A stretch of 64,000 bases of DNA from an uncultured Candidatus Saccharibacteria bacterium (GCA_964649715.1 CAZYTH010000005.1:1765-65764), one strand, 5' to 3'. Counted from the stretch's first letter, positions 2,523-49,989 are shown. Notes: generated from the sequence alone by a model not told the origin. A program made the numbers and translations.

Positions 2523-2600
2523 ATGTTCGAGTCCCTACCTCTACCTATCGGTAAATAGGTAGAGGTAGACAGGCCTGCCTGTCTGGTAGGCAGGCTCTAC
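2523..2600. repeat. Composite palindromic (MITE-like) element: 14 bp perfect inverted repeat ctacctctacctat/ataggtagaggtag, then GC-rich palindrome gcctgcctg...caggcaggc
   Basis: Seen directly. A related shorter copy lies at 17651-17690. The GC-rich half recurs at 3530-3550, 12466-12502 and 50047-50061. Confidence 0.55.
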
Positions 2601-3292: not shown

Positions 3293-3457
3293 TACCCCTC
3301 AGTAGGATATCTTCCTCTACGAGGACTGTATAGCTTTCCCATTCCGATTTCGTTAAAACTCATCGGAATAAGGGAGAAGCTTTTCGATTCCTAACACAAT
3401 GCAAGCAGTTGCATTGTTCTGAGGGCATAATTAACATATGTTAATTTTATTAATTTA

Positions 3458-3529: not shown

Positions 3530-3550
3530 GTCAGGCAAGTCAGGCAGGTC
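3530..3550. repeat. GC-rich repeat gtcaggcaagtcaggcaggtc (member of the ggcaggcagg family) abutting the 5' end of tRNA-Arg
   Basis: Seen directly. Shares caggcaggtct with the copy inside fpg. Confidence 0.45.
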
Positions 3551-3658: not shown

Positions 3659-6600
3659 TTATTTATATTCTCTTAGCCAGAAATGTTCATCTTTTATTTT
3701 AATCAAAACTTTTGATGCCCCCTCTGGTCTTAAAAAAGAAAGTGATGAATTTGAACCACTCTGTTGTTTAACCAAAAAGAAACCAATTGCATCTCCTTTA
3801 GAAAAAAGCAAATCATTTATCTTTCCATCATTACGCATACTAAAAGATATTAAGGTATCTGATTTCTCCATGCCAGGGGTATATCTATGTATTTTTGGCA
3901 ATGATTCAAATGTGCCATCACCTTTATTTAAATAAATAATAAGATAACCACGATTACATAATAAGACAATGTCCTTTTTGCCATCATTATTATAATCAAT
4001 TGTAGCGGAACCCAAAATATCTAGAACTAAATCGTCTATATACCTCGTTCCATAATCTTTTCTTTCCTCAAATTCACCGTTGTTTTTTCCTAAGAAAATA
4101 CTAAAAACAGGAGATTGGTAGTCATAATAGACCCCGTTACTTAAACCAGCAGAATATGACGCTACAGCTAAATCAGAAATTCCATCATTGTTAAAATCGG
4201 CAATGATTGGTTTTCCTGGATAAGGTAGCGTGTAATATGTATTTTTCTTTTCTAATTCACCATCTTCATTTCCGAGCATTATTGCAATCGTACTTGTATT
4301 AAAATCAGAAGCAACAACATCACCAAATGTATCATTATTTATTTTGCCCGCTGTTAAGTATGCTTGTGCGACAGAATTGGTTGAGAATTGTTCGTCAAAA
4401 TTTGGATTTCCGTCATTTTTCAAACCGCCATTTTTCAAAACAGTAATTCCTGGAGTCCCCGCCACGATATCAATCTTTCCATCTCCATTTATATCAATAA
4501 TATCCAAATATTGGAAATAAGGAGAGTCTGTTCCAAAATAGATAGGCTGTTTAAATGTATTATCACCCTTGTTCATAACAACCGAAACATTTCTGTCATC
4601 ACCGACAGCAACTATATCAGCCTTTCCGTCACCGTCCAAATCCCCTATTTTTACTTTGCGTAGTCTCCATCCAACTGAAAATTCAGATACATTGTATTTA
4701 AAACCATCGATATTTTCAGTCCCATTTTGATTACTCAAAAAAACAGAAATTGAGGAAGCCTTCTTATTTGCTGTCACAAAATCAGGTATGCTGTCATTGT
4801 TGAAATCATAAATATCAATACCCCATGTTTCAACATCAGTACCATTGCTTCTAATTAATTGTTTAAGTTCTTTATAGTCTAAAGAGCTAGTCGTTTCGCT
4901 ATTTGCCTTAATCAAAGAGACACCATACATAACAACATTATTACCTTCTTTTTTTGTCATTCGAAGCGGAGATGTAAGGACACCCTTTGGATCAAAAGCT
5001 ATCTTTATTTCTTTATCATCATGCTTAACACGAAATCCGATATCAACAAAATCGACAAAAGGCAAACTACAATCTTTTGTTCCTGTCATTAGTTTTGTTT
5101 TTTCACAATTGCTCGTTTGGGTAAAAGTTTCTGTGGTGCATTTTGTTGCAGGATCAGGAGTCCATGTTGTATCAACACAATCCCCAACATTCACGGTCAC
5201 GCTCTTTGAATCACTTCCCCCGGGACCTTCACAAGACAGTGTGAAGGTTTTGCTTTCTCTTAAGCTTCCTGTGGACTGAGAAGAGTCAAGGGTTCCTAAT
5301 GTTCCAGGAGCTAAAGTACCCGACCAACCAGTACCACTTCTTGTACAAGATGTGGCGTTTTTGGCGGTGTATCTGATTGTTGTGGCTGTGTTGTAATCAA
5401 CAAAACCGTGACCAACCGTCAGAGTGACTTCTGGTGGTTTTATGCTTACAGTTTTTGAATCTTCTACTTTTGCACCATTTATTCCAATACATTCAACCTT
5501 GTATGTTTTTGAGGTGGTGAGGTTGCCAGTAGAGAAACTTGATAAACTTGTGTAGCTACTTGACCAATCCCCTGACCAATCCCCAAGTCTCCTACAAGAA
5601 ATAACGTTTGTTGTCGTGTATGTTAGTGTTGCTGGCGTATTATAATCAACGAGTTCTTTGTCGACTGTGAAGTTTAAAGTTGGTGAATCTAAAGGCAAAC
5701 TACAATCTTTTGTTCCACTAATACCTGTTCTAGTCGAACCACACTCTGTACCCGTTTGGGTGAAAGTTTCTGTAGTGCATCTTGTTGCAGGGTCAGGAGT
5801 CCATGTTGTATCAACACAAGCCCCGACATTCACGGTCACGCTCTTTGAATCACTTCCCCCGGGACCTTCACAAGACAGTGTGAAGGTTTTGCTTTCTCTT
5901 AAGCTTCCTGTGGACTGAGAAGAGTCAAGGGTTCCTAATGTTCCAGGAGCTAAAGTACCCGACCAACCAGTACCACTTCTTGTACAAGATGTGGCGTTTT
6001 TGGCGGTGTATCTGATTGTTGTGGCTGTGTTGTAATCAACAAAACCGTGACCAACCGTCAGAGTGACTTCTGGTGGTTTTATGCTTACAGTTTTTGAATC
6101 TTCTACTTTTGCACCATTTATTCCAATACATTCAACCTTGTATGTTTTTGAGGTAAAAAGATTACCAGTAGGGAAACCTGATGCACTTGTGTAACTACCT
6201 GACCAATCCCCAAGTCTCCTACAAGAAGTAACGTTTGTTGTCGTGTATGTTAATTTTGTTGATGTATTGTAATCGACTGAATCGTTCTCGACTATGAAAT
6301 TTAGAGTTGGGGCTCCTGGTTCTGCAACAGAAACAACTACCTCTTTTTCAACATCACTACCTCCTGGGCCAGAACAATTCAGTCTGTAGGTTTTGCTTTC
6401 TGTTAAGCTTCCTGTGTCCCAAGAAGAGCTAAGTGCCCCTGATGATGCATTAGGAGGTAACGAGCCACTCCAATCTCCGCTTTTTGTACAGGATGTTGCG
6501 TTTTTAGCTGTATATTTAAGATTGGTTTTTTCTCCATAATTAAGATTTTGTTTAGTAGCCTCTAATGTAACAACTGGAGGGTTTATACCTATTATTACGT

Positions 6601-8455
6601 CCTTCTGCTCTTTATTATCCTTAGAATCTAAACAGACTAATACAAATTTATATTCGGCCTTTAAATCGCCCGTATATTTAGAATTAGGTGAGGTATGAGA
6701 ACCATTCGATAACGTTAGATAACCATCATTACTACCGTTCTTTGTAAAGTAACAGCTTTTGGCATTTTTAACAGTATACCTAAGGTATGTGGCTTTATTA
6801 AAATCAACCTTTTCTGCGTCAGTTGTTAACGTAACCTCTGGGGCGTTTGAATACAGAGTTACTTCCTGCTTCACATCTCTCCCCCCGGGACCATCACAAG
6901 TTAGTGTAAATGTTGTTTGTTCTTTTATTGAACCAACATTTGTACTTAGGTTTACAAAAGAACCAGTTGTTGCTGAAGGATTTAAAGAGCCTTTCCAAGA
7001 ATCGTTTCCAGTTCTTGTACAAGAGGTGGCATTTTTAACACTGTATGTAAGGGTTACGGTATCTTTATAATCATAATTTATTTTATTGTCTTTAGCGCTT
7101 AACGAAACCTCTGGAGCGTTTATGCTTATGGTCACTTCCTTTTCTCCAGCGTCTCCTCCTGGTCCTGAACAGTTTAATTTAAATGTTGTACCAACCTTTA
7201 AGTTTCCTGTGGTTATGCTTCCAATTGCAATAGAGCTAAGAATAAGATTATTGTATGTACCACCGCTTAGTTTACAGGATGTGGCGTTTTTGGATGTATA
7301 TTTAAGAGTGGTGGCTTTACCATATTCAACGCTACTATCAACAACCGTCAGTGTGGATTCTGGAGCGTTTATACTTACGGTTTTTGTATCTTCTACTTTA
7401 TTACCATTAATTCCAGTACATTCAACCTTGTATGTTTTTGAGGTGGTGAGGTTGCCAGTAGTTACATTCGTGGCGCTTATCCCAGAGCCAGTCCATCCGT
7501 CGCTTCTCTTACAAGAAGCAGCATTTGTTGTCTTGTATGATAACGTTGTTGATGTATTGTAATCGACTGAATCTTCCTCGACTGTGAAGTTTAGAGTTGG
7601 ATCATTTATCGTTACCGTGGTTTCTGCACTAATATCCTGATTTAAACTATTTTTACAATTTATTTTGAAGGTTTTTTGTTCTTTTATCTCTGGAGAAGGC
7701 CTCGATAATACGGTTTGGTTTGTCCCTATGACTTCACTCCAATTGCTTGTACAACTCTTCGCATTTTTTGTTTCCCAACTAAGATTCACTTTTTCCCCTG
7801 AATTGACTTTATCCCTGTCAGATTTAATTGTAACAGTCACTGGGTTTTGTACAGGACCTTCAAAAGGAGGATTTTCCTCTACGGGAGTATTTGTCGTCGC
7901 ACCATAAACATTGATAAGGAAATCTGGAATAGTTCCACAATTTCTCCACGCACAATCAATATAAGCGGAAGTATTAGGATAACAATAAGCTACTCTGTAA
8001 GAATTTGCAGATATTTTTCGAGAACCATTAATATTCTCTACTGTCCAAGTTTTCGTGTAAGTATTGGACTGATTAGCACTTCTCCCAACCCCCTCTCTGT
8101 TTGATCCGTTTGAGCACAAACTGGTTCCAAATACATCATAAAAACCATAGAGGTCGCTTCTAATGCCCTGAACAGGCGTAGACATAGGTATTACTCCTGT
8201 GGCTGATTCTGTAATGGTGCAAGTAATCTTACTAAGAGCCTTAACACTAGCACCCGATCGAATCACATTTTCATTTGCATCTTTGCAGGTAATTGACGCT
8301 ACAAAACCGTCACCACATTTATTTGTTTCGCCCGCAGAAGGATGTTTCTGCCCAACCTCTCTGCATTCCGCTGCTTCCCCTGTTGCTGGAAAAAAAATAA
8401 ACAAAAAACAAATAAAAGAAAAAAATAAGATAAGTTTTTTTAGATTAATTTTCAT
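3659..8455 (-). CDS. Giant secreted surface protein (1598 aa): signal peptide, several Ig-like ~100 aa repeats with conserved Cys pairs, C-terminal FG-GAP/VCBS-like repeats
   Basis: N-terminal MKINLKKLILFFSFICFLFIFFPATGEA signal peptide. Repeated LNFTV..VDYN..T.L.Y..NA.SC...W.G...K.Y.L.C.GPGG modules. C-terminal DGDGKADIV, INGDGKIDIV and NNDGKKDIV motifs typical of FG-GAP beta-propeller repeats. Confidence 0.7.
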   Translation of the reverse strand: MKINLKKLILFFSFICFLFIFFPATGEAAECREVGQKHPSAGETNKCGDGFVASITCKDANENVIRSGASVKALSKITCTITESATGVIPMSTPVQGIRSDLYGFYDVFGTSLCSNGSNREGVGRSANQSNTYTKTWTVENINGSRKISANSYRVAYCYPNTSAYIDCAWRNCGTIPDFLINVYGATTNTPVEENPPFEGPVQNPVTVTIKSDRDKVNSGEKVNLSWETKNAKSCTSNWSEVIGTNQTVLSRPSPEIKEQKTFKINCKNSLNQDISAETTVTINDPTLNFTVEEDSVDYNTSTTLSYKTTNAASCKRSDGWTGSGISATNVTTGNLTTSKTYKVECTGINGNKVEDTKTVSINAPESTLTVVDSSVEYGKATTLKYTSKNATSCKLSGGTYNNLILSSIAIGSITTGNLKVGTTFKLNCSGPGGDAGEKEVTISINAPEVSLSAKDNKINYDYKDTVTLTYSVKNATSCTRTGNDSWKGSLNPSATTGSFVNLSTNVGSIKEQTTFTLTCDGPGGRDVKQEVTLYSNAPEVTLTTDAEKVDFNKATYLRYTVKNAKSCYFTKNGSNDGYLTLSNGSHTSPNSKYTGDLKAEYKFVLVCLDSKDNKEQKDVIIGINPPVVTLEATKQNLNYGEKTNLKYTAKNATSCTKSGDWSGSLPPNASSGALSSSWDTGSLTESKTYRLNCSGPGGSDVEKEVVVSVAEPGAPTLNFIVENDSVDYNTSTKLTYTTTNVTSCRRLGDWSGSYTSASGFPTGNLFTSKTYKVECIGINGAKVEDSKTVSIKPPEVTLTVGHGFVDYNTATTIRYTAKNATSCTRSGTGWSGTLAPGTLGTLDSSQSTGSLRESKTFTLSCEGPGGSDSKSVTVNVGACVDTTWTPDPATRCTTETFTQTGTECGSTRTGISGTKDCSLPLDSPTLNFTVDKELVDYNTPATLTYTTTNVISCRRLGDWSGDWSSSYTSLSSFSTGNLTTSKTYKVECIGINGAKVEDSKTVSIKPPEVTLTVGHGFVDYNTATTIRYTAKNATSCTRSGTGWSGTLAPGTLGTLDSSQSTGSLRESKTFTLSCEGPGGSDSKSVTVNVGDCVDTTWTPDPATKCTTETFTQTSNCEKTKLMTGTKDCSLPFVDFVDIGFRVKHDDKEIKIAFDPKGVLTSPLRMTKKEGNNVVMYGVSLIKANSETTSSLDYKELKQLIRSNGTDVETWGIDIYDFNNDSIPDFVTANKKASSISVFLSNQNGTENIDGFKYNVSEFSVGWRLRKVKIGDLDGDGKADIVAVGDDRNVSVVMNKGDNTFKQPIYFGTDSPYFQYLDIIDINGDGKIDIVAGTPGITVLKNGGLKNDGNPNFDEQFSTNSVAQAYLTAGKINNDTFGDVVASDFNTSTIAIMLGNEDGELEKKNTYYTLPYPGKPIIADFNNDGISDLAVASYSAGLSNGVYYDYQSPVFSIFLGKNNGEFEERKDYGTRYIDDLVLDILGSATIDYNNDGKKDIVLLCNRGYLIIYLNKGDGTFESLPKIHRYTPGMEKSDTLISFSMRNDGKINDLLFSKGDAIGFFLVKQQSGSNSSLSFLRPEGASKVLIKIKDEHFWLREYK
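5061..6369. repeat. Intragenic tandem duplication (two units of about 640-655 bp) inside the giant surface protein gene. The core 5152-5515 and 5791-6154 is near-identical (364 bp, 2-3 mismatches).
   Basis: Direct comparison of the two stretches. A more divergent third copy of the repeat end lies near 7391-7462. Confidence 0.8.
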
Positions 8456-10920: not shown

Positions 10921-12250
10921 ATGGATAAAATACTTTCTAAAATAAAAAATAAAATTCCGAAGAGCTTTCTTGAAAAAATTAGACCAGCTTATCATTACTC
11001 TCTAGCTCTACTGGGCAACACAATATACAACTCCCCCTCAAAAGAAATATTTGTGATCGGGATAACGGGAACAAAAGGAAAATCCACCACAGTTGAGATC
11101 TTGAGTGCGATATTAGAGGAAGCAGGTTACAAAACAGCGGTTGCTTCCACCGTCAGGTTCAAGATAGACAAAGACAGCAAGTCCAACCTCCTAAAAATGA
11201 CAATGCCTGGAAGATTTTTTATTCAAAAATTTTTAAGAGAAGCCGTTGTCGCTGGTTGTGAATACGCAATAATAGAAATGACCTCTGAGGGTGCGAAGAA
11301 CTTCAGACATAAATTTGTTGAACTTAATTCTCTGATATTTACAAATATATCACCCGAACACATTGAGTCTCACGGATCATATGAAAAATATCTTGGGGCA
11401 AAACTATCCATCGCCAAACAGCTAGAATCTTCTGGAAAACCAAGTCGCTCTATTATCGCAAACGGCGACGACGAGGAATCTGATAAATTCTTTAAAATAA
11501 ATGTTCCCAACAAAATAGCGTTTTCTCTTGCGGAAGCAAAACCATTTACCCTAGAAAAAGAATATTCTGATATAAACATCTTCGGAGAAAGAGTTATCAC
11601 AAAATTACCAGGAGAATTCAATGTGATGAACATACTTGCGGCATCCACCTTCGCAAGAAGCCAGGGAATATCGCCGACTATAATAAAAAATGCGATAGAA
11701 AAAATAAAAAATATTCCGGGAAGAGTTGAAAAAATTGAAATAAATTCTAAAGATAAAAGATGAAAGTGGCAAAGAAATTGGAATTGGAACATTTCCTGAT
11801 TTTAGCGTAATCGTTGATTATGCACACACGGCTGATTCATTAGAAAAACTTTATAAAGTTTTTAAGCGAGAAAAAAGAATCTGTGTCCTTGGGAGTTGTG
11901 GAGGAGGACGAGACAAATGGAAAAGACCTAAAATGGGATCCGTTGCAGAAAATTATTGTGATGAAATAATCTTAACCGACGAAGATCCTTACGACGAAGA
12001 TCCGGAGGAAATAATTAGAGAAGTTGCGAAAGGAATCAAAAACAAAAAACCAAAAATTATTTTAGATAGAAGAGAGGCAATCAGAGAAGCACTCTCATGT
12101 GCGAAAAAAGGTGATGTTGTTCTTATAACAGGTAAGGGAACCGATCCATGTATAATGAAAAAAAATGGAGAAAAAATTTCATGGAGCGACAAGGAAGTGA
12201 CAGAGGAAGAATTAGTTAAGCTGGCAATTGAGAGAACGGTGAACAAATAA
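10921..12250 (+). CDS. Mur ligase family protein (MurE-like UDP-N-acetylmuramoyl-tripeptide ligase), apparent frameshift near 11745-11765
   Basis: GITGTKGKSTT P-loop. Mur-ligase core ...FTNISPEHIESHGSYEKYLGAKLSIAKQ...IPGRVEKIEI. The conserved VIVDYAHTADSLEKL motif is only in the +1 frame (11765 onward), which continues into ORF 11933-12250 (C-terminal Mur ligase domain). The frame switch is at an A-rich tract aaagataaaagatgaaag. Confidence 0.65.
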
Positions 12251-12263
12251 ATTAAAAATTATC

Positions 12264-12280
12264 AATTACGAATTACGAAT
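12264..12280. repeat. Copy of dispersed AT-rich repeat caattacgaattacgaat
   Basis: Seen directly. Same motif at 43142-43160, 43510-43528 (inverted), 49474-49505, 49544-49555 (inverted), 49990-50023 and 58538-58556 (inverted, inside uvrD). Confidence 0.6.
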
Positions 12281-12379
12281 TTTTCAAAAAGAGAATAATG
12301 ATTGTGAGGAAATTATAAAAATAATAGGAAAAATTCGAACAACTGTCAGAGATAATTCTTAATTTTTAATTAAACTAAA

Positions 12380-13333
12380 TTGCCTGAACTTCCCGAAGTT
12401 ACAACAATAGTCTCCGGACTAAATAAAAGAGTAAAAGGTCTTATCATAAAAGACGTCTGGACTGACCTGCCTAAACGGCAGGCAGGTCTGCCTGCCGGCA
12501 GGAAAGTTGGGCTACGCAAGCAAGATCTTCTGACAATAAAAAATCCTGAATATTACAAAAATTTCAAAAAAGAAGTCGCAGGAAAAAAAATAATCGTTTG
12601 TGAAAGGATAGGAAAAAATATTTTAATGCACTTGTCCGGTAACACGACTATTCTCTTCCACATGAAAATGACAGGGCACTTGCTTTGCGGAAAATGGATT
12701 TCCGTCAAAGGTGAAAAAAATGCGTGGAAGCCAGAGAACAAAAACTCCCCTCTTTGTGATCCGTACAATAGATTTATTCATATAATTTTCTATCTAGATA
12801 ACGGCAAAATGCTCGCGCTTTCTGATATGAGAAAATTTGCTAAAGTGACATTGCTTAAAAAAGAAAATGAAAAAGAGTTTTCAGAAATAAAAAAAATTGG
12901 TCCTGACCCTTTAAAAATAAATTTAAAAAAATTTAGGGAACTTATAAGGAAAAAACCAACGGGAAAAATAAAACAGGTTTTAATGGATCAAGAATTAATT
13001 TCAGGCATAGGAAATATTTATTCAGACGAAATACTTTGGGCAACTGGAATACATCCGTTGGAGAAAATAAAAAAAATTACAGATGAAAAAATAAAAATGA
13101 TGTATGAAACAACTAAAAAAATTTTAACAGAATCAATAAATTATGGAGGAGATTCTATGTCTGATTTTAGAAACATTGACGGAGAAAAAGGAAATTACCA
13201 GAAACACCACAAGGCATACAGACAGACAGGAAAACCTTGTCCCAAAAGAGACGGGGGGAAAATTGTGAAAACAAAAGTTGGGGGAAGAAGCGCGCACTAT
13301 TGTAATGTGCACCAATCACTTCAGCATAAATAA
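12380..13333 (+). CDS. mutM: Formamidopyrimidine-DNA glycosylase (Fpg/MutM), TTG start, carrying an in-frame palindromic-repeat insertion
   Basis: N-terminal (M)PELPEVTTIV. C-terminal zinc finger CPKRDGGKIVKTKVGGRSAHYCNVHQ. H2TH region present. Residues ...DLPKRQAGLPAGRKVGLRK... are encoded by the GC-rich palindromic repeat at 12466-12502. Confidence 0.85.
   Translation: MPELPEVTTIVSGLNKRVKGLIIKDVWTDLPKRQAGLPAGRKVGLRKQDLLTIKNPEYYKNFKKEVAGKKIIVCERIGKNILMHLSGNTTILFHMKMTGHLLCGKWISVKGEKNAWKPENKNSPLCDPYNRFIHIIFYLDNGKMLALSDMRKFAKVTLLKKENEKEFSEIKKIGPDPLKINLKKFRELIRKKPTGKIKQVLMDQELISGIGNIYSDEILWATGIHPLEKIKKITDEKIKMMYETTKKILTESINYGGDSMSDFRNIDGEKGNYQKHHKAYRQTGKPCPKRDGGKIVKTKVGGRSAHYCNVHQSLQHK
12466..12502. 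repeat. GC-rich palindromic repeat (cctgcc-taaac-ggcagg, then cctgccggcagg) inserted in frame within fpg
   Basis: Seen directly. Member of the cctgcctgcc/ggcaggcagg family. Confidence 0.6.
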
Positions 13334-15966: not shown

Positions 15967-17490
15967 TTATTCTGTATATCTTATTCTTTTTTTGAGCTTC
16001 TCAAATAGCACATTTATTTTGACCTGAAAATATCTTTTTTCTTTTTCATAATCTGGATTGGTCTTCCTGTTTTCGTCTAGAATAAGATTATCCCCTAAAA
16101 TTTTTTCTATTTCAGACAATCTCCACAATAGTCTATAAATATTATCAATCTTTTTATTTAATTCCCTTTTTTTATTAATAGAAATTTCAGATAAATCGCT
16201 GTCCTTCAATTCCGCTTTCTGTGCTTTTAATTCTTCTAATGAATTACTTAGTCGTTCCCTTGGGTTTAGTGAATTAACCTCTTGCGCAATCTGTTCTATT
16301 GATAAATAATTCTGTTCTATCGATCCATTTTCCAAGGACTCTTGAATCCTTCTTTCTGTTTCCATGGTAATTTTATCCTTTTTGGTGGCGACGTCCTCTT
16401 GTTTGGGTGTTTCTTTCTTGTTTAGTTTTTTGCAATATTCTTCAATTTTTTCCGATGAGATGAGTTCTCTTAATACCCCTCTTATTATTCTTTTTTTCAT
16501 GTCAAAATTATCTGCTTCCGGACCTCCTGGAGGCATTCCCGCATTGACCCAATCTTTATATCTAGCCATCAAGTGACGCAGAGGTATTATGACCAAAACA
16601 AGATCGTCCACTTTTTTCTCTAAAGTAAGCGACATTTTCTGTTTGGACATTTCTGTTTGTTTGCCCTTTTTCTCCCCTACATCTTTGTTGGTATTTATCG
16701 TAAATTGTATACCTGTGCTTTTGGAATCAGATTCGACGTCAACTCCTCTTAGCCTATTTTTTGTTTCTACAATAAAATCTATTTTATATTCAACATCCTC
16801 AAAAAAATCTACATCTTTTACATCAAATTCCGCTTCATGATCGATTTCCAACTTCTTTAAAATTGTTTTAACAAGTTTTTCGGCTACAAATCCGCCTCTC
16901 TCTAGACTTTCTTTTTTATTTTCAGGTAGCCTTGTTCCGTATGCTTGCTTTTTTCCTTCATCAGTAAATCCGCTGCTGTGTTCGTTTATCGCTATTTGTT
17001 CGTCCAATAATTCTCCGATTAGAGACGAAGTTCTTTCTACGATATATCTCTTTCTTACATCGCGTGGAACAGTAAGAGGATCGAGATTATAATCATTGCC
17101 CCAATCATAATCTGTAAAAATTGTACCCAGAGTTACTCTTATGTCACCCACAAAATAAAAGTCTCCTTCTTTTTTAACATTTCGAACGTTTCTGCCCTCA
17201 ACCTCTTCTATTTCTACCAACTCATTGTTGTCTATTTTTCTAAGATTTTCCCTGAGACCTTTCATTATCTCTAATTTTTTTTCTTGAATCTCATATATTT
17301 CTGTCTGTTTTTCCGGGGTATTCAAAAAATACTCAGATCTGCTTTCGATGAGTTTAATTTTGTCTCTCAGTATCTCCGGGTCTTTCTCTCTAAATTCACC
17401 TTTTATATTTTTGCCATAATCTCTTAGAGCTATTTTTTCAAAAAATTCTCTCATATTTTTTATTAAATTTTTATTGTTATACTTTAGCAA
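15967..17490 (-). CDS. Hypothetical coiled-coil protein (507 aa)
   Basis: Long ORF with coherent, charged, Lys/Glu-rich composition and heptad-like segments. No recognisable catalytic motif. Confidence 0.45.
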   Translation of the reverse strand: MLKYNNKNLIKNMREFFEKIALRDYGKNIKGEFREKDPEILRDKIKLIESRSEYFLNTPEKQTEIYEIQEKKLEIMKGLRENLRKIDNNELVEIEEVEGRNVRNVKKEGDFYFVGDIRVTLGTIFTDYDWGNDYNLDPLTVPRDVRKRYIVERTSSLIGELLDEQIAINEHSSGFTDEGKKQAYGTRLPENKKESLERGGFVAEKLVKTILKKLEIDHEAEFDVKDVDFFEDVEYKIDFIVETKNRLRGVDVESDSKSTGIQFTINTNKDVGEKKGKQTEMSKQKMSLTLEKKVDDLVLVIIPLRHLMARYKDWVNAGMPPGGPEADNFDMKKRIIRGVLRELISSEKIEEYCKKLNKKETPKQEDVATKKDKITMETERRIQESLENGSIEQNYLSIEQIAQEVNSLNPRERLSNSLEELKAQKAELKDSDLSEISINKKRELNKKIDNIYRLLWRLSEIEKILGDNLILDENRKTNPDYEKEKRYFQVKINVLFEKLKKRIRYTE

Positions 17491-17650
17491 AAATAACTAA
17501 ATTTATAAATAAATTTAAAAAACACCCACAATTAAAATTTCAATATTATCTCCTGCGAGAAAGAATTTTTAAGCCCAGCAGAATTATTCCAATATATGGA
17601 CAGTCCAATCGTCGGATCCACCTTGGGTGGATACTCAGTCTGGTTTCGAA

Positions 17651-17690
17651 CTGCCTCTACCTATTGGTAGACAGGTTCCGGCAGGCAGGC
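17651..17690. repeat. Shorter copy of the composite palindromic element (ctgcctctacctattggtagacagg ... ggcaggcaggc)
   Basis: Aligns with 2535-2595. Preceded by a tRNA T-arm-like ggtttcgaact segment. Confidence 0.5.
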
Positions 17691-17727
17691 TAACGAAAGC
17701 TATGGGTAATGGCTTTCTCTGGGCAGA

Positions 17728-17752
17728 CAAAAATCCGCTCATCGCGGATTGT
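17728..17752 (-). terminator. Hairpin aatccgc-tcatc-gcggatt directly downstream of the tRNA-Lys 3' end
   Basis: 7 bp stem followed by a short T-run on the minus strand. Probable tRNA transcript terminator or processing hairpin. Confidence 0.35.
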
Positions 17753-17755
17753 TTG

Positions 17756-17828
17756 TGCGCCCAGCAGGATTCGAACCTGCGACCATTTGCTTAAAAGGCA
17801 ACTGCTCTACCAACTGAGCTATGGGCGC
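17756..17828 (-). tRNA. tRNA-Lys (anticodon UUU)
   Basis: Reverse complement GCGCCCATAGCTCAGTTGGTAGAGCAGTTGCCTTTTAAGCAAATGGTCGCAGGTTCGAATCCTGCTGGGCGCA is near-identical in architecture to E. coli tRNA-Lys. Anticodon loop CTTTTAA. Confidence 0.85.
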
Positions 17829-17891
17829 ATTTAATAACTAATGTGTAAAAAACAATAACAAAATTATCGCTACCTGTCCAATGACAACACG

Positions 17892-17916
17892 ATGAGCGAG
17901 GTTGAACCTCACTCAT
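17892..17916. repeat. REP-like 25 bp imperfect palindrome atgagcgaggttgaacctcactcat overlapping the RAYT stop codon
   Basis: Seen directly. Related copies at 18395-18419 (reverse complement) and 18627-18651 (direct). Confidence 0.7.
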
Positions 17917-18622
17917 CATTTTGTTCCATAATTAAATCTATGTCTCCATCATTCTTATTGTCCCTAATCCAATCTTCCATTTCTTTTTTATACTTCGCTT
18001 CCCCGCCAAGATAACCACTCATCCATTCTCGCGATGTAACAGATGGAAAATTTTTTATTCCTATATAATCTAAATAGCTACTCCATCTATAGTGATTCAA
18101 TTGTTCTATTTTTTCGGATGGCAATCCCTTGGATTTCTTTATGGGGTTATTGTGTATATAAAAAGGCAACCAACCAAAATGAGCTTCTTTTTTTATGTGG
18201 ACCGCCTTAAATCTTCCCTGAAACAAACCCCCCACTCTCTCATATTTTTGATTAAAATACATAGTATATCCAGTCCCCAGTTTCTGCATAAATTTTACGA
18301 TTCCATTCTCTTGTCTTTGTTTCAAAACCAAATGAAAATGATTGGGCATCAATGTAAAAATAATAACATCAACCAACCTTTTTCTATTCTTCACAAATGA
18401 GTGAGGTTCAACCTCGCTCATTGATCTATTATGTTCAATGTCACGACCTAAATTCTGAACTGGGGAATTATTATTAAATTCATAAAGACAGTGAATAAAT
18501 CTAAGATGGTCCTGCTTATCTAAAAAGATGTTTCTTTTTTCTACACCCCTATTATAAATGTGATAGAATTCATCTTCTATAAATTCCGGTTTTTTCTTTG
18601 CCATAAACAAGAATACTATCAT
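17909..18622 (-). mobile_element. REP-associated tyrosine transposase (RAYT; IS200-like Y1 HUH transposase)
   Basis: EFYHIYNRGVEKRNIFLD N-terminal motif. HUH motif MPNHFHLVL. Catalytic Tyr region GYTMYFNQKYERVGGLFQGRFK. Bracketed by REP palindromes in the RAYT arrangement. Confidence 0.75.
18395..18419. repeat. REP-like palindrome copy inside the RAYT coding sequence (encodes MSEVEPHS in frame)
   Basis: Exact reverse complement of the 17892-17916 copy. Confidence 0.7.
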
Positions 18623-18626
18623 CCTT

Positions 18627-18651
18627 ATGAGCGAGGTTCAACCTCACTCAT
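18627..18651. repeat. REP-like palindrome copy 5 bp upstream of the RAYT start codon
   Basis: Differs from the 17892-17916 copy only at the central base. Confidence 0.7.
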
Positions 18652-18730: not shown

Positions 18731-19198
18731 CTACTTCTTCTTCTTGCCGCCCTTACCCTTGTTCTTCTTGTTCTTGCCCCCATCGGAGGAGCCGCCCTTC
18801 CCTTTCTTCTGCTTCGGGGGCTTCACCTTGGGATGCCAAGTGCCGTTGGCCTTCCCCGCTTCGATGCCGGCCCAACGAGCCGGCTTGGCCTTGGACTTTT
18901 TCTTCGACCCAACGCGGGAACGATTCAGGATTGACGGTCGATACTCCTCCTGAATCAAACCCTTGATGTAGGCCGAGTGGATTCGACGAACCTGAAAAGC
19001 CTCCCTTTCCTCGGCGTCGAAAATCGCGCCGTTCTGGACTTCGATGATGTTGCCGAGCGTGAAGTCCTTGTTGACGGTCTGAACCTTCCAGTCTCCTTCA
19101 TTGTCGGGAAGATTGGAGAGATTCTCGAGAATAATCCCGAGACCCTCAAACACCGAGAGGAAAAACTTGATTACCTCACCGACACGGAAGTTCACCAT
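18731..19198 (-). CDS. Hypothetical protein (155 aa) with GC3-rich codon usage and a Lys/Gly-rich C-terminal tail (KKKSKAKPA...KGKGGKKKK)
   Basis: Coherent ORF in a GC-rich segment. Consensus sigma70 promoter and AAAAGGAGGG ribosome-binding site upstream. Basic tail suggests nucleic-acid binding. No family recognised. Confidence 0.55.
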   Translation of the reverse strand: MVNFRVGEVIKFFLSVFEGLGIILENLSNLPDNEGDWKVQTVNKDFTLGNIIEVQNGAIFDAEEREAFQVRRIHSAYIKGLIQEEYRPSILNRSRVGSKKKSKAKPARWAGIEAGKANGTWHPKVKPPKQKKGKGGSSDGGKNKKNKGKGGKKKK

Positions 19199-19245
19199 AA
19201 AAATAGCCCTCCTTTTAAAATTTTGATGTTCTTAATTCTCTTTTA

Positions 19246-19274
19246 ATTATATACCTTTATTATGAATCTGTCAA
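19246..19274 (-). promoter_or_regulatory. Consensus sigma70 promoter TTGACA-17-TATAAT for the 155 aa gene
   Basis: Minus strand reads ggtggtgTTGACAgattcataataaaggtaTATAATtaaaag, about 45 nt upstream of ribosome-binding site AAAAGGAGGG and the ATG at 19198. Confidence 0.6.
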
Positions 19275-19435
19275 CACCACCAAATAAAATTGTCTAAAAT
19301 ACAGATAATCAACGACTATCATCCCTTTTGTCATTCCCGACTTGATCGGGAATCCAGAAATTGTCTTTGAAACTGGATCCCCGTTTTCACGGGGATGACA
19401 ACTAAAACCGAGTCGCACTAAGAAAAAACATGCAA

Positions 19436-19492
19436 CCCTGATTGGATAAAAATATATTCATCTAAAATGAATATATTTTTATCCAATCAGGG
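19436..19492 (-). terminator. 26 bp perfect inverted repeat with 5 nt loop, followed on the minus strand by ttgcatgtttttt
   Basis: ccctgattggataaaaatatattcat-ctaaa-atgaatatatttttatccaatcaggg. Unusually long stem. Could also be a protein-binding palindrome. Confidence 0.5.
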
Positions 19493-19502
19493 TAAAGAAA
19501 AA

Positions 19503-19529
19503 GGCGCTGAAGCTTGAGAGCTTAGCGCC
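19503..19529 (-). terminator. Rho-independent terminator (ggcgctaagctc-tcaa-gcttcagcgcc plus TTTTTCTTT) after the 292 aa gene
   Basis: Hairpin plus T-run on the minus strand, 50 nt after the stop at 19581. A smaller hairpin ggagatg-gac-atctcc (19540-19560) precedes it. Confidence 0.55.
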
Positions 19530-19580
19530 TGAAATGGACATTTTGTTGATGGAGATGTCCATCTCCGATTCTGCACTAGG

Positions 19581-20459
19581 TTACTTCTTGTTGGTCGGGC
19601 GGAGTTTGGATAGAAGGTTGGCAACCACCGGAACCTTCTCGATCTGTGCCCTGAATCCCTCATCCATCCACTTGAAGTGAGCGAACAGGAATCCGCCGTT
19701 ACCGTTCTGATTCTTGCGCCGTTCCAAGATCGGAACATCGCGCTCGAGACCGAGCTCCACCTTGCCTTCAACGAGCTGAAGAGTCCGGACCTTGGCCCAG
19801 ATCTCCCCATCGAAGCCTGACTTGGTGGAGATTACCGCACAGGGGCCCGCCGACCCGTGGATGTGGAGTTCTCCCCGAATGACACGAGGCCAGTCGAAGA
19901 TTTCCTTTCCGTCGGCGAGTTTCTTCTTCTTGGTGAAGCCACGGGAACCCCATTGCCAGCGAGCCTCGGAGATGGGCAGGGTGATCAGGATCTCGGAGAT
20001 CCGCTTGGCCAACTTCAGCTTAAGCTGGTCAGCGACGGCCTTGGGCAGGATCCGGAATTCGCTACGGGAAAGACTGACCGGAACGCCCTCGGAGGTCTCG
20101 GCCTCCATCTGACCATCGGCCTTGACCGAGATCAAGACCAGGTGACCGCACTTGACCGCAGCACCGACATAGCCGGACCGCGGATCGATGGGGGGCAGCT
20201 CCTTCAGAGTGCCGTCTTCCATCTTCTTCTGGCGGCGGATGTTGGCCATGCCGTAGAGACCGTTGAGCTCGAACTGCTCGATCGGGCGAAGGGAGGTCTT
20301 CTGGACCGCCTCCATGACCTGGTCGGTGCCGGCGATCTGAAGATCGACGAGATCTTCGGTTTCCTTGAGGATGAACATGGGCTTGGCGGATGGATCGTCC
20401 TTGAAGGCGACCCATTCCAACACGAACCGTGGTCTGCTGTTCTGATTCTTGTTCTCCAT
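19581..20459 (-). CDS. Hypothetical protein (292 aa) with GC3-rich codon usage
   Basis: Long ORF with protein-like composition. Opposite-strand ORFs are Asp/Gly/Leu-rich antisense artefacts. Ribosome-binding site AAAGGAGGG lies 8 nt before the ATG. No family recognised. Confidence 0.55.
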   Translation of the reverse strand: MENKNQNSRPRFVLEWVAFKDDPSAKPMFILKETEDLVDLQIAGTDQVMEAVQKTSLRPIEQFELNGLYGMANIRRQKKMEDGTLKELPPIDPRSGYVGAAVKCGHLVLISVKADGQMEAETSEGVPVSLSRSEFRILPKAVADQLKLKLAKRISEILITLPISEARWQWGSRGFTKKKKLADGKEIFDWPRVIRGELHIHGSAGPCAVISTKSGFDGEIWAKVRTLQLVEGKVELGLERDVPILERRKNQNGNGGFLFAHFKWMDEGFRAQIEKVPVVANLLSKLRPTNKK

Positions 20460-20763
20460 AACAATTGCCCTCCTTTGGGCTTCGAAATTCAGAATGTACC
20501 CTTTCGCTAAACTACCTCTTCCTCCAAAGAAGATTTGATTAAGCGAAGGACACGCGCACGGCCGGGTGAAATTCCACGGCCAATTTTTAGAACAGTTTCC
20601 CTTCCTCCTTTTTCATTTAACATAGAATTGACATCGCTTTCCTTGTGACGGAATTTCTCCCGCCCAAGATGGCAGTGCCGAGTCCGGATGTTGTTGTTGA
20701 CTTAATCCACCTCCTTCTTTTTGAAATAACCTTTATTGCAATGAACAAACTTGATTTTGGTTT

Positions 20764-28229: not shown

Positions 28230-29021
28230 TTAGGAAACTACTGCACGAGCCCGCAAGCGCGAGAACGAATCGCTGGTGCGGCACCAATCCACGTAGAACT
28301 TGCCAGCGCTCCAGCCCGCGCCCGGGACGCTGCCATCGGAATAGCGGGAGCCGCTACAGAGGGTAGTGCTGTTGATGTCCAAGTGGTGTTTGGTAAGCCG
28401 GAAGTAGAAGAGCTCGAGAAGACGGCGCTCGAGGAGGGTCATGGTCTGGATCTTTTGTTTCTCGATATCGAGAGCCGAAAGATTCTTGAGATCTTTGGGC
28501 ACTTCGATGGAGTCTTTGATCCAGATGGCATAGGACTTCGTGATGTTTCTCTCTTCCTTGCCCTGGTCCATGTCCTTGTCGAGATCGTCGCCGTACTTCC
28601 AGGTGGACATACCGAGCTTCTTCTCGCCGTCAGAGATCATTTTGTGTGTCAGTGACTTGGTGATGAACATCAGGAAGTCGAAACCTTGTTTGTAGTCCGG
28701 GATATCCTCCCTTTCTTTCAGGTCCAAGCCGAGAACTTCCTTATAGAATTTCTTCCAGATCCACTGGAATTCGTCAGGAACATTGACCATCTGTCCACCA
28801 AGGATGGCAGACATCTTGGGTGTGAAAGTGGCCAGCACTTTCTTGCCGAGAATCGCCTCTCGAAGTCGGGCAATCCTTTCGGGTTGTTTCATACCAATGA
28901 AGGCTTGCAGTTCTTCGGGTGTGACCTCATTGTAGACAACCGAGAGAGCTTTTAGAACTGCGCAGTCAACTTCTCGCGCGAGTCCTCCTTGCTTTTGGAC
29001 ATTCCCGTTTTGCTTGGGCAT
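28230..29021 (-). CDS. Unknown-family protein P1 (263 aa), paralog of the two downstream genes, with foreign GC3-rich codon usage
   Basis: Shares W.KFY.K.LG.D, acidic cluster ... K.YAIW(I/V)(K/R)D, TLLE and TLC.GS.Y motifs with ORFs 29315-30142 and 30139-31035. The coding sequence is about 55% GC while its flanks are AT-rich. Confidence 0.6.
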   Translation of the reverse strand: MPKQNGNVQKQGGLAREVDCAVLKALSVVYNEVTPEELQAFIGMKQPERIARLREAILGKKVLATFTPKMSAILGGQMVNVPDEFQWIWKKFYKEVLGLDLKEREDIPDYKQGFDFLMFITKSLTHKMISDGEKKLGMSTWKYGDDLDKDMDQGKEERNITKSYAIWIKDSIEVPKDLKNLSALDIEKQKIQTMTLLERRLLELFYFRLTKHHLDINSTTLCSGSRYSDGSVPGAGWSAGKFYVDWCRTSDSFSRLRARAVVS

Positions 29022-42410: not shown

Positions 42411-43130
42411 ATGCTTGATTTTATATTTAATATCTTTTATTACCCTCTTTATAATGGACTCATATTTCTTACCGCTATTGTTCCTGGAAATGACATTGGT
42501 ATTGCTATTATATTTTTAACGATATTCACGAAGGTTGCTATACTCCCTCTTTCTCATAGTTCCATAAAAACGCAGAAAAAAATGAAAGAAATAGAGCCTC
42601 ATATAAAAAAGATAAAAGAAGAACACAAAGATGACCAAGAAAAGCAAGCTTTAAAAATAATGAATCTATACAAAGAACATGGAGTGAATCCTTTCTCAAG
42701 TATTTTGATGCTTTTTATACAGCTCCCGATGTTCATTGCTCTTTATTATACCTTTAGCCATGACATAGACATCGCATCTCCCGTAATTTTTTCTTTTAAT
42801 CTTGTTCCACCAGCGATAAACACACTTTTTCTTGGTTTTTTAGAATTATCTAAAAGCAATCTCCTTCTAGCTTTGTTTGTTGGTATTACTCAGTTTATTC
42901 AAACACAACTTTCTGTTCCTAAAATACCAAAAAGCCAAGAAAAAAACCCATCTTTTGCTGATGATTTTGCAAAAAGTATGAATTGGCAGGTTAAATACTT
43001 TCTTCCCTTTTTTATAACTTATATTGCTAGTAAACTAAACGCAGGTGTTTCCTTGTTTTGGATAACGAGTAATCTTTTTGGAATAGCGCACGAGCTGTTT
43101 GTGAAGAAAAAAGCGGAAGATCTAAAATAA
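42411..43130 (+). CDS. yidC: Membrane protein insertase YidC (short form)
   Basis: Multi-TM 239 aa protein with the conserved YidC core (...VNPFSSILMLFIQLPMFIALYYTF...). Canonical rpmH-rnpA-yidC order. Confidence 0.8.
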   Translation: MLDFIFNIFYYPLYNGLIFLTAIVPGNDIGIAIIFLTIFTKVAILPLSHSSIKTQKKMKEIEPHIKKIKEEHKDDQEKQALKIMNLYKEHGVNPFSSILMLFIQLPMFIALYYTFSHDIDIASPVIFSFNLVPPAINTLFLGFLELSKSNLLLALFVGITQFIQTQLSVPKIPKSQEKNPSFADDFAKSMNWQVKYFLPFFITYIASKLNAGVSLFWITSNLFGIAHELFVKKKAEDLK

Positions 43131-43141
43131 ATTAGAAATTG

Positions 43142-43160
43142 CCAATTACGAATTACGAAT
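43142..43160. repeat. Left arm of perfect 19 bp inverted repeat ccaattacgaattacgaat flanking the four-helix-bundle gene
   Basis: Reverse complement is found at 43510-43528. Confidence 0.75.
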
Positions 43161-43518
43161 GAAGGAAAATATTATTCAAAAGAAGAGTTACGATTTTGCA
43201 TTAAAAATAGTCGGTATATATCAAAATTTAGTAAAAAACAACAAAGAATTTGTTCTTTCGAAGCAATTACTGAGAAGCGGAACCTCAATCGGTGCTAATA
43301 TTGAAGAGGCAATCGGAGCTCAATCTAGAAAAGATTTTTATTCAAAGCTCAGTATAGCCTATAAAGAAGCAAGGGAAACCAAATATTGGGTAAGAATACT
43401 TTGTGATAGCGACATGTTGTCTACCAATGAGGCTGGTTTGTTGTTGAATGATCTCGAAGAGATACTAAAAATCATAGGAAAAATTCAAAAAACCGTTAAA
43501 GATGGTTTTAATTCGTAA
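43159..43518 (+). CDS. Four-helix-bundle protein (23S rRNA intervening-sequence protein / DGR Avd-like family)
   Basis: 119 aa. KKSYDFALKIVGIY ... SGTSIGANIEEA ... KDFYSKLSIAYKEARETKYWV matches the TIGR02436-type four-helix-bundle family. Confidence 0.7.
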   Translation: MKENIIQKKSYDFALKIVGIYQNLVKNNKEFVLSKQLLRSGTSIGANIEEAIGAQSRKDFYSKLSIAYKEARETKYWVRILCDSDMLSTNEAGLLLNDLEEILKIIGKIQKTVKDGFNS

Positions 43519-43528
43519 TTCGTAATTG
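43510..43528. repeat. Right arm (attcgtaattcgtaattgg) of the 19 bp inverted repeat
   Basis: Perfect reverse complement of 43142-43160. Confidence 0.75.
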
Positions 43529-43540
43529 GTAATTTCTAAT

Positions 43541-44830
43541 TTATTTCAGCTTCACGACCCAAGCAGTGCCGTCTTTTTTGTTTATGAATGCAAAAAAGTC
43601 TTCGTTTTCGCTTAAAATTGGTTCTATAATATCTATCTCTACTCCCCCTAGCTTCTCTTTGTCTATAATTATCCTAGCGGTAGCACTGCTGGTGTCTATT
43701 TGCCAAATTGTATCTGAGAAAGATGAGATTCCCTGATACCATGATTCGGGATATTTTGAACCTAATACTACATTAGGAACTCCACAATAAATTATATTTT
43801 CATCACCTTTACTAAAGACGCATTTTTCAGGAAGAGTTTTTAAAGGGAAAGAATTGGTTGCACCATCCACTTGATTAAAAAAGTATGTCATAAAACCTGT
43901 CCCTACGGTTTCGGAATAGATAACGTTATTATTTTTTGGGCTTATTTTTGTAGTAAGGCCAGAAATATCCCCGATAACCTTTTGGAAATTATTTGTTCCG
44001 TTCACAGATAAAGAATAAAGTTGCCCTAAGGCAGAAGAAGAAGGTTTTGTCGCCAAGGAAATTATTTTGTCTGATTCCCAAGACACACTCCACTCTTTAA
44101 GAGGAGAACTCCATATTTGAGTTTTCGGACTAGAAAGTGGGTCTGAATTAAATTCTCCTATAGTACCAACCACAGAGCCTCCATTGTTTATTAAGTAAAA
44201 TACTTTGTCTTTGTCTGGAGAAACAGCGAAACCAAGTGTATTTGAAGGAAGAATGGTTCCGTTTAGTTTGCCTACACCTGACTCAACAGTTACCTCTGTT
44301 TCAGAAGATGGTTCTATTGTGCCATATATCGTTTGAAGGATGTTGTTTATTCCCTCAAGTCTTCTTAATATTAAATTCTGGCCGTTTTTCCCCCACGAAG
44401 TATCTACTATCCCCGTGATAGTTGTGTTTGTTATTTTTGTTGGAATATTTTCACTAAAAGACATATCTTTTATGTGTCCTGTTCCTTTCTCTATAAAACG
44501 AAGCGAAGGCTCTCCTTCGTTTTTGTTCACAAAAGTTATTCCTGCCACAGAGACACTTGTCATTTTTTTAATACTGCCAGGAATTCTTGTTTCATAGTCG
44601 TCTATTGTTTGATCGTTCTGATTTATAAAATCTGAACTTTCATTTTTTGTTGTATTTCCGTTTATTTTTCCGCTACTTGGAAAATAGTTCGTGTCTTCAT
44701 TTGTCGGCGGTTGAGGTTCTCCTGAAGAAGGAAATTGTTCCCCTCTTTGAAGATACCAAACAGTCCCTCCTACAGAGGCAACTATTAAAAGAGAAATTAT
44801 TACCACAAAGATAGTTGTCCTTTTGTTCAT
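43541..44830 (-). CDS. Membrane-anchored extracytoplasmic hypothetical protein
   Basis: Likely start MNKRTTIFVVIISLLIVASVGG (one TM), then a Ser/Thr/Gly/Asn-rich beta-rich domain. The upstream His/Gln-rich extension in the ORF track is probably non-coding. Confidence 0.45.
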   Translation of the reverse strand: MNKRTTIFVVIISLLIVASVGGTVWYLQRGEQFPSSGEPQPPTNEDTNYFPSSGKINGNTTKNESSDFINQNDQTIDDYETRIPGSIKKMTSVSVAGITFVNKNEGEPSLRFIEKGTGHIKDMSFSENIPTKITNTTITGIVDTSWGKNGQNLILRRLEGINNILQTIYGTIEPSSETEVTVESGVGKLNGTILPSNTLGFAVSPDKDKVFYLINNGGSVVGTIGEFNSDPLSSPKTQIWSSPLKEWSVSWESDKIISLATKPSSSALGQLYSLSVNGTNNFQKVIGDISGLTTKISPKNNNVIYSETVGTGFMTYFFNQVDGATNSFPLKTLPEKCVFSKGDENIIYCGVPNVVLGSKYPESWYQGISSFSDTIWQIDTSSATARIIIDKEKLGGVEIDIIEPILSENEDFFAFINKKDGTAWVVKLK

Positions 44831-44849
44831 CTTTTTAAATTTTAATTTA

Positions 44850-49982: not shown

Positions 49983-49989
49983 ATATAAT

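Follow-up and report, generated by a model that had tools for sequence, protein, structure and literature searches.

The 64,000-nt stretch of DNA analysed here (hereafter the window; GC content about 35%) appears to carry three unrelated short-repeat systems, and the copies that lie in frame within genes are probably survivors, that is, copies that contain no stop codon in the direction of translation, measure a multiple of three nucleotides and landed or expanded in a disordered surface loop; we put the probability of this reading at roughly 60%. The first-pass annotation had told a single story of palindromic elements colonising genes. All the repeats that it listed are present at their positions, the GC-rich and AT-rich motifs occur far above chance, and fpg, uvrD and the RAYT-like gene are read through them; in-frame repeats in genes thus stand, but the single story splits into three systems that have nothing to do with each other. 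The positions and reading frames of the repeats, their absence from orthologs, their location in loops and their co-variation were observed directly, and all copy numbers given are counts within 64 kb. The window belongs to a genome of the Patescibacteria (Parcubacteria/Paceibacterota), and the relatives of its Fpg and UvrD proteins are nearly all found in metagenome-assembled genomes of Parcubacteria/Paceibacterota. The closest syntenic relative is GW2011_GWF2_38_76, which shares the gene order RuvA, Mur ligase, fpg, SpoU, a 132-aa gene and a ClpB-like gene.

The fpg gene (12380-13333, + strand) starts with TTG and encodes a formamidopyrimidine-DNA glycosylase of 317 aa (Pfam Fapy_DNA_glyco and H2TH), for which 120 orthologs were compared. 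Its GC-rich, self-complementary in-frame segment of (GGCA)n/(TGCC)n runs at 12466-12502 (+ strand) stands out by its fold, its codons and a low-pLDDT loop; it has the sequence CCTGCCTAAACGGCAGGCAGGTCTGCCTGCCGGCAGG and the in-frame translation LPKRQAGLPAGR. Residues 30-42, LPKRQAGLPAGRK, are encoded at 12467-12505 within the 317-aa open reading frame, in agreement with the earlier statement that a palindrome inside fpg adds about 13 residues while the frame is kept. As DNA, the segment folds with -16.8 kcal/mol (z = -4.06). Its codons include ones that are rare in this genome, where CTG accounts for 5% of Leu codons and CGG and CGC for 2% and 3% of Arg codons, respectively, and its GC3 is 0.56 compared with 0.30 for the window's genes. 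Besides, neither (GGCA)n nor its complement is interrupted by a stop, whichever of the six frames is read. In the AlphaFold model of Fpg (mean pLDDT 89.8), residues 33-41 fall below 50 and lie between the strand 22-28 and the helix 56-66.

The stretch formed by residues 24-66 counts 43 residues in the window, the longest among the 120 orthologs (mode 31, range 23-43), compared with 23 in the nearest sequence group and 36 in the syntenic relative; with the frame kept, the loop therefore exceeds the mode by 12 residues and that of the syntenic relative by 7. The fpg gene of GW2011_GWF2_38_76 carries CTGCCTACCGGCAGACAGACTGGTCTGCGT at the same codons, which is also GC-rich and self-complementary, while the two proteins are 64% identical and the third codon positions of the two genes 47% identical. 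Since a related hairpin occupies the same codons in both, the GC-rich hairpin is older than the split of the two lineages. The proposal that the fpg insertion is lineage-specific therefore holds only in part: an in-frame, GC-rich, self-complementary lengthening of a variable loop with rare codons is evident, but it is not recent. In comparison with the syntenic ortholog (L002, 3088-3126), the window has 21 additional nucleotides (12473-12493, + strand, encoding KRQAGLP), a probable tandem duplication of the adjoining 21-nt unit. Each of the window's 21-nt units, CTGCCTAAACGGCAGGCAGGT and CTGCCTGCCGGCAGGAAAGTT, can be aligned to the one unit that the relative possesses; by this alignment a tandem duplication is the most likely origin of the extra 21 nt, with a deletion in the relative graded as equally possible.

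In a more distant class of Fpg orthologs, the peptide DLPRKKVTLPHF is encoded by ordinary AT-rich, non-palindromic DNA, and part of the Fpg loop may for this reason be ordinary ancestral sequence. The first-pass annotation had considered that the same peptide encoded by non-palindromic DNA in orthologs would speak against an insertion; the peptide of these distant orthologs is only loosely similar. Two further orthologs carry palindromes elsewhere in the protein, with GTCATTCCCGCC...GGCGGGAATCC in frame within a second loop in L005 and a long in-frame hairpin (-52.9 kcal/mol over 144 nt) in the same second loop in L006, and these support the general idea of in-frame repeats. A repeat of the L005 Fpg type is also present in an intergenic region of the window, near 19325-19400.

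Outside fpg, the GC-rich motif recurs at four intergenic sites. With up to one mismatch, the 10-mer GGCAGGCAGG has 7 matches in the window compared with 0.72 expected, a number reached in none of 100 shuffles, and the 8-mer CAGGCAGG matches exactly at five sites, those listed by the first-pass annotation, where 0.6 were expected. The copy at 2535-2596 (+ strand) consists of two adjacent hairpins (z = -6.7) located 140-200 nt downstream of tRNA-Ser, with a terminator-like score at 2572-2596; that at 17641-17690 (+ strand) lies 65 nt from tRNA-Lys and is conserved in the near-identical contig L009. These two have about 45 nt in common, and each follows a fragment resembling a tRNA 3' end. The copy at 3530-3550 (+ strand) is a direct repeat, (GTCAGGCA)2, which abuts the 5' end of tRNA-Arg and does not fold, and the copy at 50047-50061 (+ strand) carries CTGCCTGCCGGCAG, also found in the fpg copy, with which it shares 14 nt. 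The orientation of the copies in the window is mixed. What had been described as a GC family is accordingly a motif that exceeds chance at five sites, yet one that amounts to a core of only 10-14 nt within heterogeneous structures. The window contains three tRNA genes, each with a GC copy within 180 nt (chance probability about 8e-5), which corroborates the earlier observation that three of the five GC copies are near tRNA genes. Rfam searches at the gathering threshold over the whole window, and with E up to 1 over 17400-17900, returned nothing beyond the three tRNAs, indicating that the GC copies are not part of a known RNA, and ARAGORN detected no extra tRNA or tmRNA near them. The idea that the GC copies are terminators was rejected, as only 2572-2596 fits and the terminator-like total is not above that of shuffles.

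The ancestral fpg stretch may have arrived as a mobile motif, in view of its foreign composition and the 12-14-nt core that it shares with the four intergenic sites. A GC-rich, hairpin-forming stretch was present in this loop, the one that varies most in length in Fpg, when the lineage separated from GW2011_GWF2_38_76, and the window lineage probably gained its 21 nt afterwards by tandem duplication between CTGCCT repeats. It is conceivable, though rather unlikely in our judgement, that the fpg segment was instead made wholly in place by slippage or duplication, and that the four intergenic CAGGCAGG sites have nothing in common with it, being low-complexity hairpins of the kind formed by terminators or by debris beside tRNA genes. 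The resemblance of the extra 21 nt to a local duplication, the variation of the loop from 23 to 43 residues over the orthologs and the heterogeneity of the GC copies would all be accommodated by such an origin, as would the terminator-like score of the 2572-2596 copy and the lack of any other GC copy in 29 kb of the syntenic relative. It is opposed by the fivefold occurrence of CAGGCAGG where 0.6 were expected, by the 14-mer common to the fpg and 50047 copies, by strongly atypical codons that have been retained in two lineages with third positions only 47% identical, and by the clear in-frame palindromic repeats in other Fpg orthologs.

The second system includes a repeat in the uvrD/pcrA helicase gene (57841-59862, - strand; 673 aa; Pfam UvrD-helicase and UvrD_C). 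The gene contains a 39-nt in-frame insert of five and a half heptamers at 58534-58572 (- strand), which encodes LNYQLSITNYELL and agrees at 36 of 41 nt with the terminal repeat at 12250-12290. An AT-rich repeat had been noted in uvrD at 58538-58556 as encoding SITNYEL; it is in frame, as claimed, but the full insert is longer and comprises the 39 nt given above. The corresponding 13 aa, located directly after GIGKTSLEKILG, have no counterpart in 30 of the 32 orthologs. The only carriers are the window protein and its closest homolog (75% identical), which reads LNYELQVTNYGLL, while the orthologs at 74% identity and below are without the insert. Both carrier genomes use heptamers to encode it, and the suggestion that this segment is lineage-specific is borne out by the alignment. 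A conclusion of "no uvrD insertion", based on a length equal to that of E. coli UvrD and on the lack of a gap in the Pfam match, was overturned by the alignment with close orthologs. By itself, the uvrD insert is not a palindrome. In the UvrD model, residues 434-445 have pLDDT values below 50 and form a coil between the helices 422-429 and 451-473, and the insert site comes just after a conserved GIG segment, which corresponds to PcrA 421-433 in the alignment. Mapping onto structures, which the first-pass annotation had proposed for surface loops, therefore places both the Fpg and the UvrD insert in low-confidence loop or coil of the predicted models. The uvrD insert is probably a terminal repeat standing alone, derived from a small selfish element of which a full copy is found at 43122-43549.

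The AT motif AATTACGAATTACGAAT (17-mer, up to two mismatches) has 12 matches in the window compared with 0.04 expected. The two most informative copies, 43137-43160 and 43511-43534, were absent from the first-pass annotation, and this pair explains the AT family. They belong to a complete element of 428 nt (43122-43549, + strand), bounded by 42-nt terminal inverted repeats of AATTACG-type heptamers whose arms are 93% complementary. The PF05635 gene inside (43159-43518, + strand) encodes an S23p/four-helix-bundle protein of 119 aa, with a Pfam 23S_rRNA_IVP match of E = 3e-28 and a TIGR02436 score of 107.7 bits against a cut-off of 24. The terminal repeats contain both its start codon and its stop codon, and the heptamers AATTGCC/AATTACG/AATTACG stand before the ATG. 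In turn, the outer part of the repeats holds the stop codons of neighbouring genes, namely of both genes flanking 43122-43549 and of the Mur ligase gene at the 12245-12371 copy. The AT "palindrome" of the first-pass annotation thus turned out to be tandem heptamers that serve as terminal inverted repeats. No target-site duplication is visible at 43122/43549, and, to the best of our knowledge, PF05635 is not a known transposase family.

Four further forms of the element occur in the window. Between the Mur ligase gene and fpg, an internally deleted copy of 127 nt (12245-12371, + strand) consists of the left repeat, the last 56 nt of the open reading frame and the right repeat, and aligns to 43122-43549 with 31/34, 43/56 and 16/19 identities. 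Inverted-repeat analysis identified a minimal copy of 82 nt at 49474-49555, with two inverted terminal repeats and 12 nt between them, and a motif and direct-repeat match revealed a solo terminal repeat at 49986-50022 (+ strand). Together with the full element and the uvrD copy, these constitute a decay series of full, internally deleted, repeat-loop-repeat, solo and uvrD forms, in which the element would decay to internally deleted copies, repeat-loop-repeat hairpins and solo arrays. Besides, in L005 an intact PF05635 gene occupies the spacer that separates the Mur ligase gene from fpg, the very site of the 127-nt remnant in the window, while the same spacer in L002 holds a different palindrome; as far as these sequences go, this is presence/absence evidence at one orthologous site. 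Finding an S23p cassette outside rRNA, with a decay series and an orthologous site at which one genome keeps the intact gene and another a remnant, provides a testable picture of a mobile element.

An exact search for AATTNNNAATTACGAATTACGAAT in metagenome contigs retrieved at least 120 contigs, and the array-bearing contigs span 27-67% GC among the matches listed. Among the same listed matches, 21 of 95 arrays (the window's own counted) have an inverted partner within 80 nt, 48 of the 95 are solo, and 5 of the 95 have a partner at 301-500 nt. The last group comprises three new complete elements and the window's element on both strands; in the new ones (L097, L122 and L139, again among the matches listed), the partners are 399-446 nt apart and the encoded proteins are 44-61% identical to the window's S23p. 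A detectable PF05635 gene was located near the array at only 5-6 of 80 metagenome loci among the matches listed, and the arrays may spread or arise independently of this gene.

Eleven of 90 metagenome arrays, among the matches listed, lie within reading frames that extend for 60 codons or more to either side without a stop. Pfam analysis of the array-bearing frames, likewise among the matches listed, identified LeuRS (one gene with two arrays), TsaD, enolase, a GMC oxidoreductase and a number of membrane proteins of the glycosyltransferase type. S23p terminal arrays are also encountered inside housekeeping genes of unrelated bacteria. The sequence (AATTACG)n is translated as NYELRIT in each of its three sense frames, and each antisense frame runs into TAA. 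Because all antisense frames are closed in this way, arrays inside genes are always sense-oriented, and only sense-oriented arrays would be able to persist there.

The third system is associated with a RAYT-like Y1 (HUH) transposase gene (17909-18622, - strand; HFH at residues 95-97 and YIHNNP at 155). Its product scores 30.8 bits with Pfam Y1_Tnp, above the cut-off of 23, and 36.8 bits with the NCBIfam model REP_Tyr_transpos (NF047646), below the cut-off of 80. The 25-nt palindrome ATGAGYGAGGTTSAACCTCRCTCAT is present in three copies in the 64 kb, all of them at this gene. The internal hairpin (25 nt, 18397-18421) encodes MSEVEPHS, and a repeat search located the upstream copy at 18627-18651 and the downstream copy, which includes the stop codon, at 17892-17916. 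Protein alignment revealed counterparts of the hairpin-encoded SEVEPH in homologs that are only 55-62% identical. A profile search of solved structures with the transposase family gave no match.

For comparison, 80 loci from reference genomes were collected, of which 77 were assessable. In 29 loci, a palindrome 130-210 nt into the open reading frame recurs 36-75 nt ahead of the start codon, at the stop codon or at both (at most one mismatch in 15-17 nt). A palindrome-independent test with 13-mers (at most one mismatch; about 0.08 chance matches expected per locus) detected a repeat common to the upstream and stop regions in 71 of the 77 loci, which also lies inside the open reading frame in 46 of the 77, at fixed positions, and several loci use a second site within the gene, at about 440-500 nt of the open reading frame. 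The hairpin cores differ from genome to genome while being the same within each locus. Although all 12 stem pairs are changed on both sides (12/12; 96 cells versus 35.8 in shuffles), the alignment had been selected as palindromic and this count is biased; the independent evidence for the hairpin is the agreement of the internal with the flanking copies. The REP copy reported inside the RAYT gene is consequently real and its hairpin is in frame, but it does not represent colonisation, as the layout is conserved and co-varies with the flanks in the 46 of 77 loci. The hairpins are most likely putative recognition sites of the encoded Y1 enzyme, and the identity of the copies points, at the level of sequence, to enzyme recognition, gene conversion or both. 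The upstream, internal and stop-codon hairpins evolve in concert. For REP/RAYT systems, a hairpin that is retained within the transposase gene and co-evolves with its flanks is an unexpected layout, suggestive of self-recognition by the enzyme.

One could go further and suppose that none of the in-frame repeats is passive debris. The Y1 transposases of Patescibacteria would then keep one or two translated recognition hairpins for self-regulation or self-rearrangement, (AATTACG)n would represent the ends of mobile S23p/IVS elements that enter essential genes of many phyla and are open in every sense frame, and the GC core CCGGCAGGCAGG would be a recognised signal tied to tRNA and repair genes. 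We consider this speculative and doubtful. A related and quite improbable explanation holds that the repeats are retained as functional recognition sequences, with the GC core as a genome-wide signal (uptake or recombination) or an agent of tRNA-linked processing, and the transposase hairpin as a self-regulation site. While the GC copy within 180 nt of all three tRNA genes (P about 8e-5) would be expected from it, an uptake-type signal would be expected at a higher density than five copies in 64 kb; that a distant relative has kept the GC-rich hairpin at these codons of fpg also speaks for retention, yet the orientation of the GC copies is mixed, none occurs in 29 kb of that relative, and no Rfam family matches the GC regions. 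The internal and flanking hairpins that co-vary at fixed positions in 46 of 77 transposase loci are likewise on its side. An origin of the in-frame repeats as artefacts of assembly or binning, the genome being metagenome-assembled, deserves next to no credence: one probable sequence error is present in the window (a +1 frameshift in the Mur ligase gene), but the related fpg hairpin occurs in independent ENA, NCBI and JGI assemblies, the uvrD insert in an independent contig with diverged sequence, the hairpin layout in 79 other genomes and a GC copy again in L009, and every open reading frame stays open.

We thus favour the reading of in-frame copies as survivors, for which the modes of insertion, and any function of the repeats, are inferred from the patterns described above. 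Short repeats would enter or expand all over the genome; within genes, selection would spare only those copies that are stop-free, a multiple of three in length and placed in loops tolerant of extra residues; and in-frame copies, once fixed, would be inherited and drift, as may have been the case for the uvrD copy and for the fpg hairpin, each of which is present in two lineages.

Similarities to several known systems are apparent. Rickettsia palindromic elements (RPEs) measure about 100-150 bp, occur in tens of copies per genome, and form defined families with a conserved encoded peptide (Ogata et al. 2000, as summarised in PMC10969869). On that description, the window resembles them in having dispersed repeats in frame in unrelated housekeeping genes of a small AT-rich genome, with a peptide added and the protein spared. 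It differs in the size of the inserts (37-60 nt in fpg, 39 nt in uvrD), in an fpg family that shares only a short core, and in a uvrD insert that is a tandem-heptamer array from the end of a gene-carrying element. A dispersed, many-copy family of palindromes of about 100 bp or more was not found, the five GC sites sharing 10-14 nt as counted within 64 kb. The in-frame insertion of small repeats is itself a well-known event elsewhere. The in-frame repeat variants of the window appear to be undescribed, and literature searches on palindromic or REP repeats in CPR/Patescibacteria, as well as on the heptamer array and its peptide, yielded no relevant description. The earlier remark that RPE-type colonisation is not generally described in low-GC streamlined genomes is in line with this outcome for Patescibacteria.

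The heptamer element is reminiscent of the S23p-bearing intervening sequences (IVSs) of 23S rRNA, whose origin and mobility have been in question since the 1990s (PMC4990558). The Coxiella 23S rRNA IVS measures 428 nt and comprises an S23p open reading frame, a terminal stem of 28 bp and, directly ahead of the ATG, heptamers in tandem (PMC4990558). The window element agrees with the IVSs of Coxiella and Leptospira in its 428 nt, the PF05635 open reading frame filling the interior, the long terminal inverted repeats, the heptamers before the ATG and the deletion-prone copies (PMC4990558). In contrast, the heptamer is AATTACG in the window and GACAGAT in the Coxiella IVS (PMC4990558), and the window copies are intergenic and overlap the stop codons of flanking genes, with one array in frame in uvrD. 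Rfam detected no rRNA in the window, and the copies lie between protein genes, unlike IVSs, which sit in a helix of 23S rRNA and are excised from it by RNase III.

The transposase gene shares with REP/RAYT (REPIN) and IS200/IS605 systems a Y1 HUH gene flanked by short GC-containing hairpins that are specific to each genome. It differs in the extra translated copy (sometimes two) inside the open reading frame at fixed positions, and in that the hairpin of the window has only three copies in 64 kb and is not dispersed at high copy. About 70 residues separate the first strand from the HUH motif in the window protein, compared with about 40 in E. coli RayT, and E. coli rayT has neither an internal palindrome nor an 11-mer common to its flanks.

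MITEs inside genes have been reported for ERIC, BOX and cyanobacterial MITEs (PMC10969869). The window copies at 12245-12371, 49474-49555 and 49986-50022 are similar in being small non-autonomous derivatives with inverted termini, with occasional in-frame fusions, whereas no target-site duplications were seen for the window element, nor at any other repeat copy. Cyanobacterial STRR heptamer repeats are tandem heptanucleotide arrays that form hairpins when paired. In contrast to MITEs and STRRs, the window array is stop-free in three sense frames and was found in contigs of 27-67% GC among the matches listed.

With regard to annotation, odd low-complexity loops in conserved Patescibacteria proteins (NYELRIT, RQAG/LPAG or HSRESGNP-like) can be repeat-derived, and such loops should not be taken for functional motifs or assembly errors. 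As a side observation, the protein sequences of the window's Fpg and UvrD recur with 100% identity on an NCBI contig.

The hairpin flanking the Y1 transposase ORFs of Patescibacteria was also found inside them, at two preferred places, in a sample of 80 genome loci (L009-L088) together with the window locus at 17892-18651. The first of these places lies at ~134-230 nt of the ORF, immediately 5' of the HUH codons, and the second at ~440-500 nt, past the Tyr motif; in some loci both are occupied. An intergenic spacer of the window (19325-19400) carries the nested palindrome TGTCATTCCCGA..TCGGGAATCCAG ... CTGGATCCCCG..CGGGGATGACA, a motif of the same type being present in frame in the Fpg gene of contig L005, and a perfect inverted repeat of 27 nt with a 5-nt spacer is located at 19435-19493. 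Two islands at 18731-20600 and 28230-29021 have a GC content of 44-60%, compared with 35% for the window, and their ORFs gave no match in Pfam or NCBIfam, so that they may represent foreign DNA next to the transposase.

Fragments that look like the 3' end of a tRNA (T-loop and acceptor strand) were observed close to tRNA genes at 2525-2545, 17641-17660, and 3297-3312, two of the three being followed directly on the 3' side by copies of the short GC-rich repeat family. These fragments are possibly relics of integration sites.

Three genes have their stop codons within the outer AAATAAATTAG portion of terminal repeats of the S23p element (a PF05635 gene inside heptamer inverted repeats), namely yidC (43128-43130), the convergent ORF 43541-44953 (43541-43543), and the Mur ligase gene (12248-12250). 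One copy of the heptamer terminal repeat also lies on each side of a PrgI-family, type IV secretion-like ORF (49554-49982). A +1 frameshift near 11763-11790 interrupts the Mur ligase gene (10921-12250), reflecting either a sequencing error or a pseudogene; the counterpart of this gene in the syntenic relative GW2011_GWF2_38_76 is unbroken and encodes 443 aa. In this relative (contig L002), the Mur ligase-fpg spacer holds a palindrome with an 18-bp stem (GTCATTGCGAGGTCGACG..., 2905-2965), different from the repeat at that place in the window, and a heptamer-repeat hairpin of 155 nt is situated between the S20 and ruvA genes (772-925).

Among the metagenome loci listed (L090-L169), (AATTACG)n arrays comprise up to ~14 units, reside on contigs of 27-67% GC, and often neighbour other heptamer arrays, such as AATCACG, CATTTCA, and AATCCGC. 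Tandem repetition was furthermore seen within a window ORF of 1598 aa (3659-8455, reverse strand), whose internal repeats of 639 nt are 97-100% identical.
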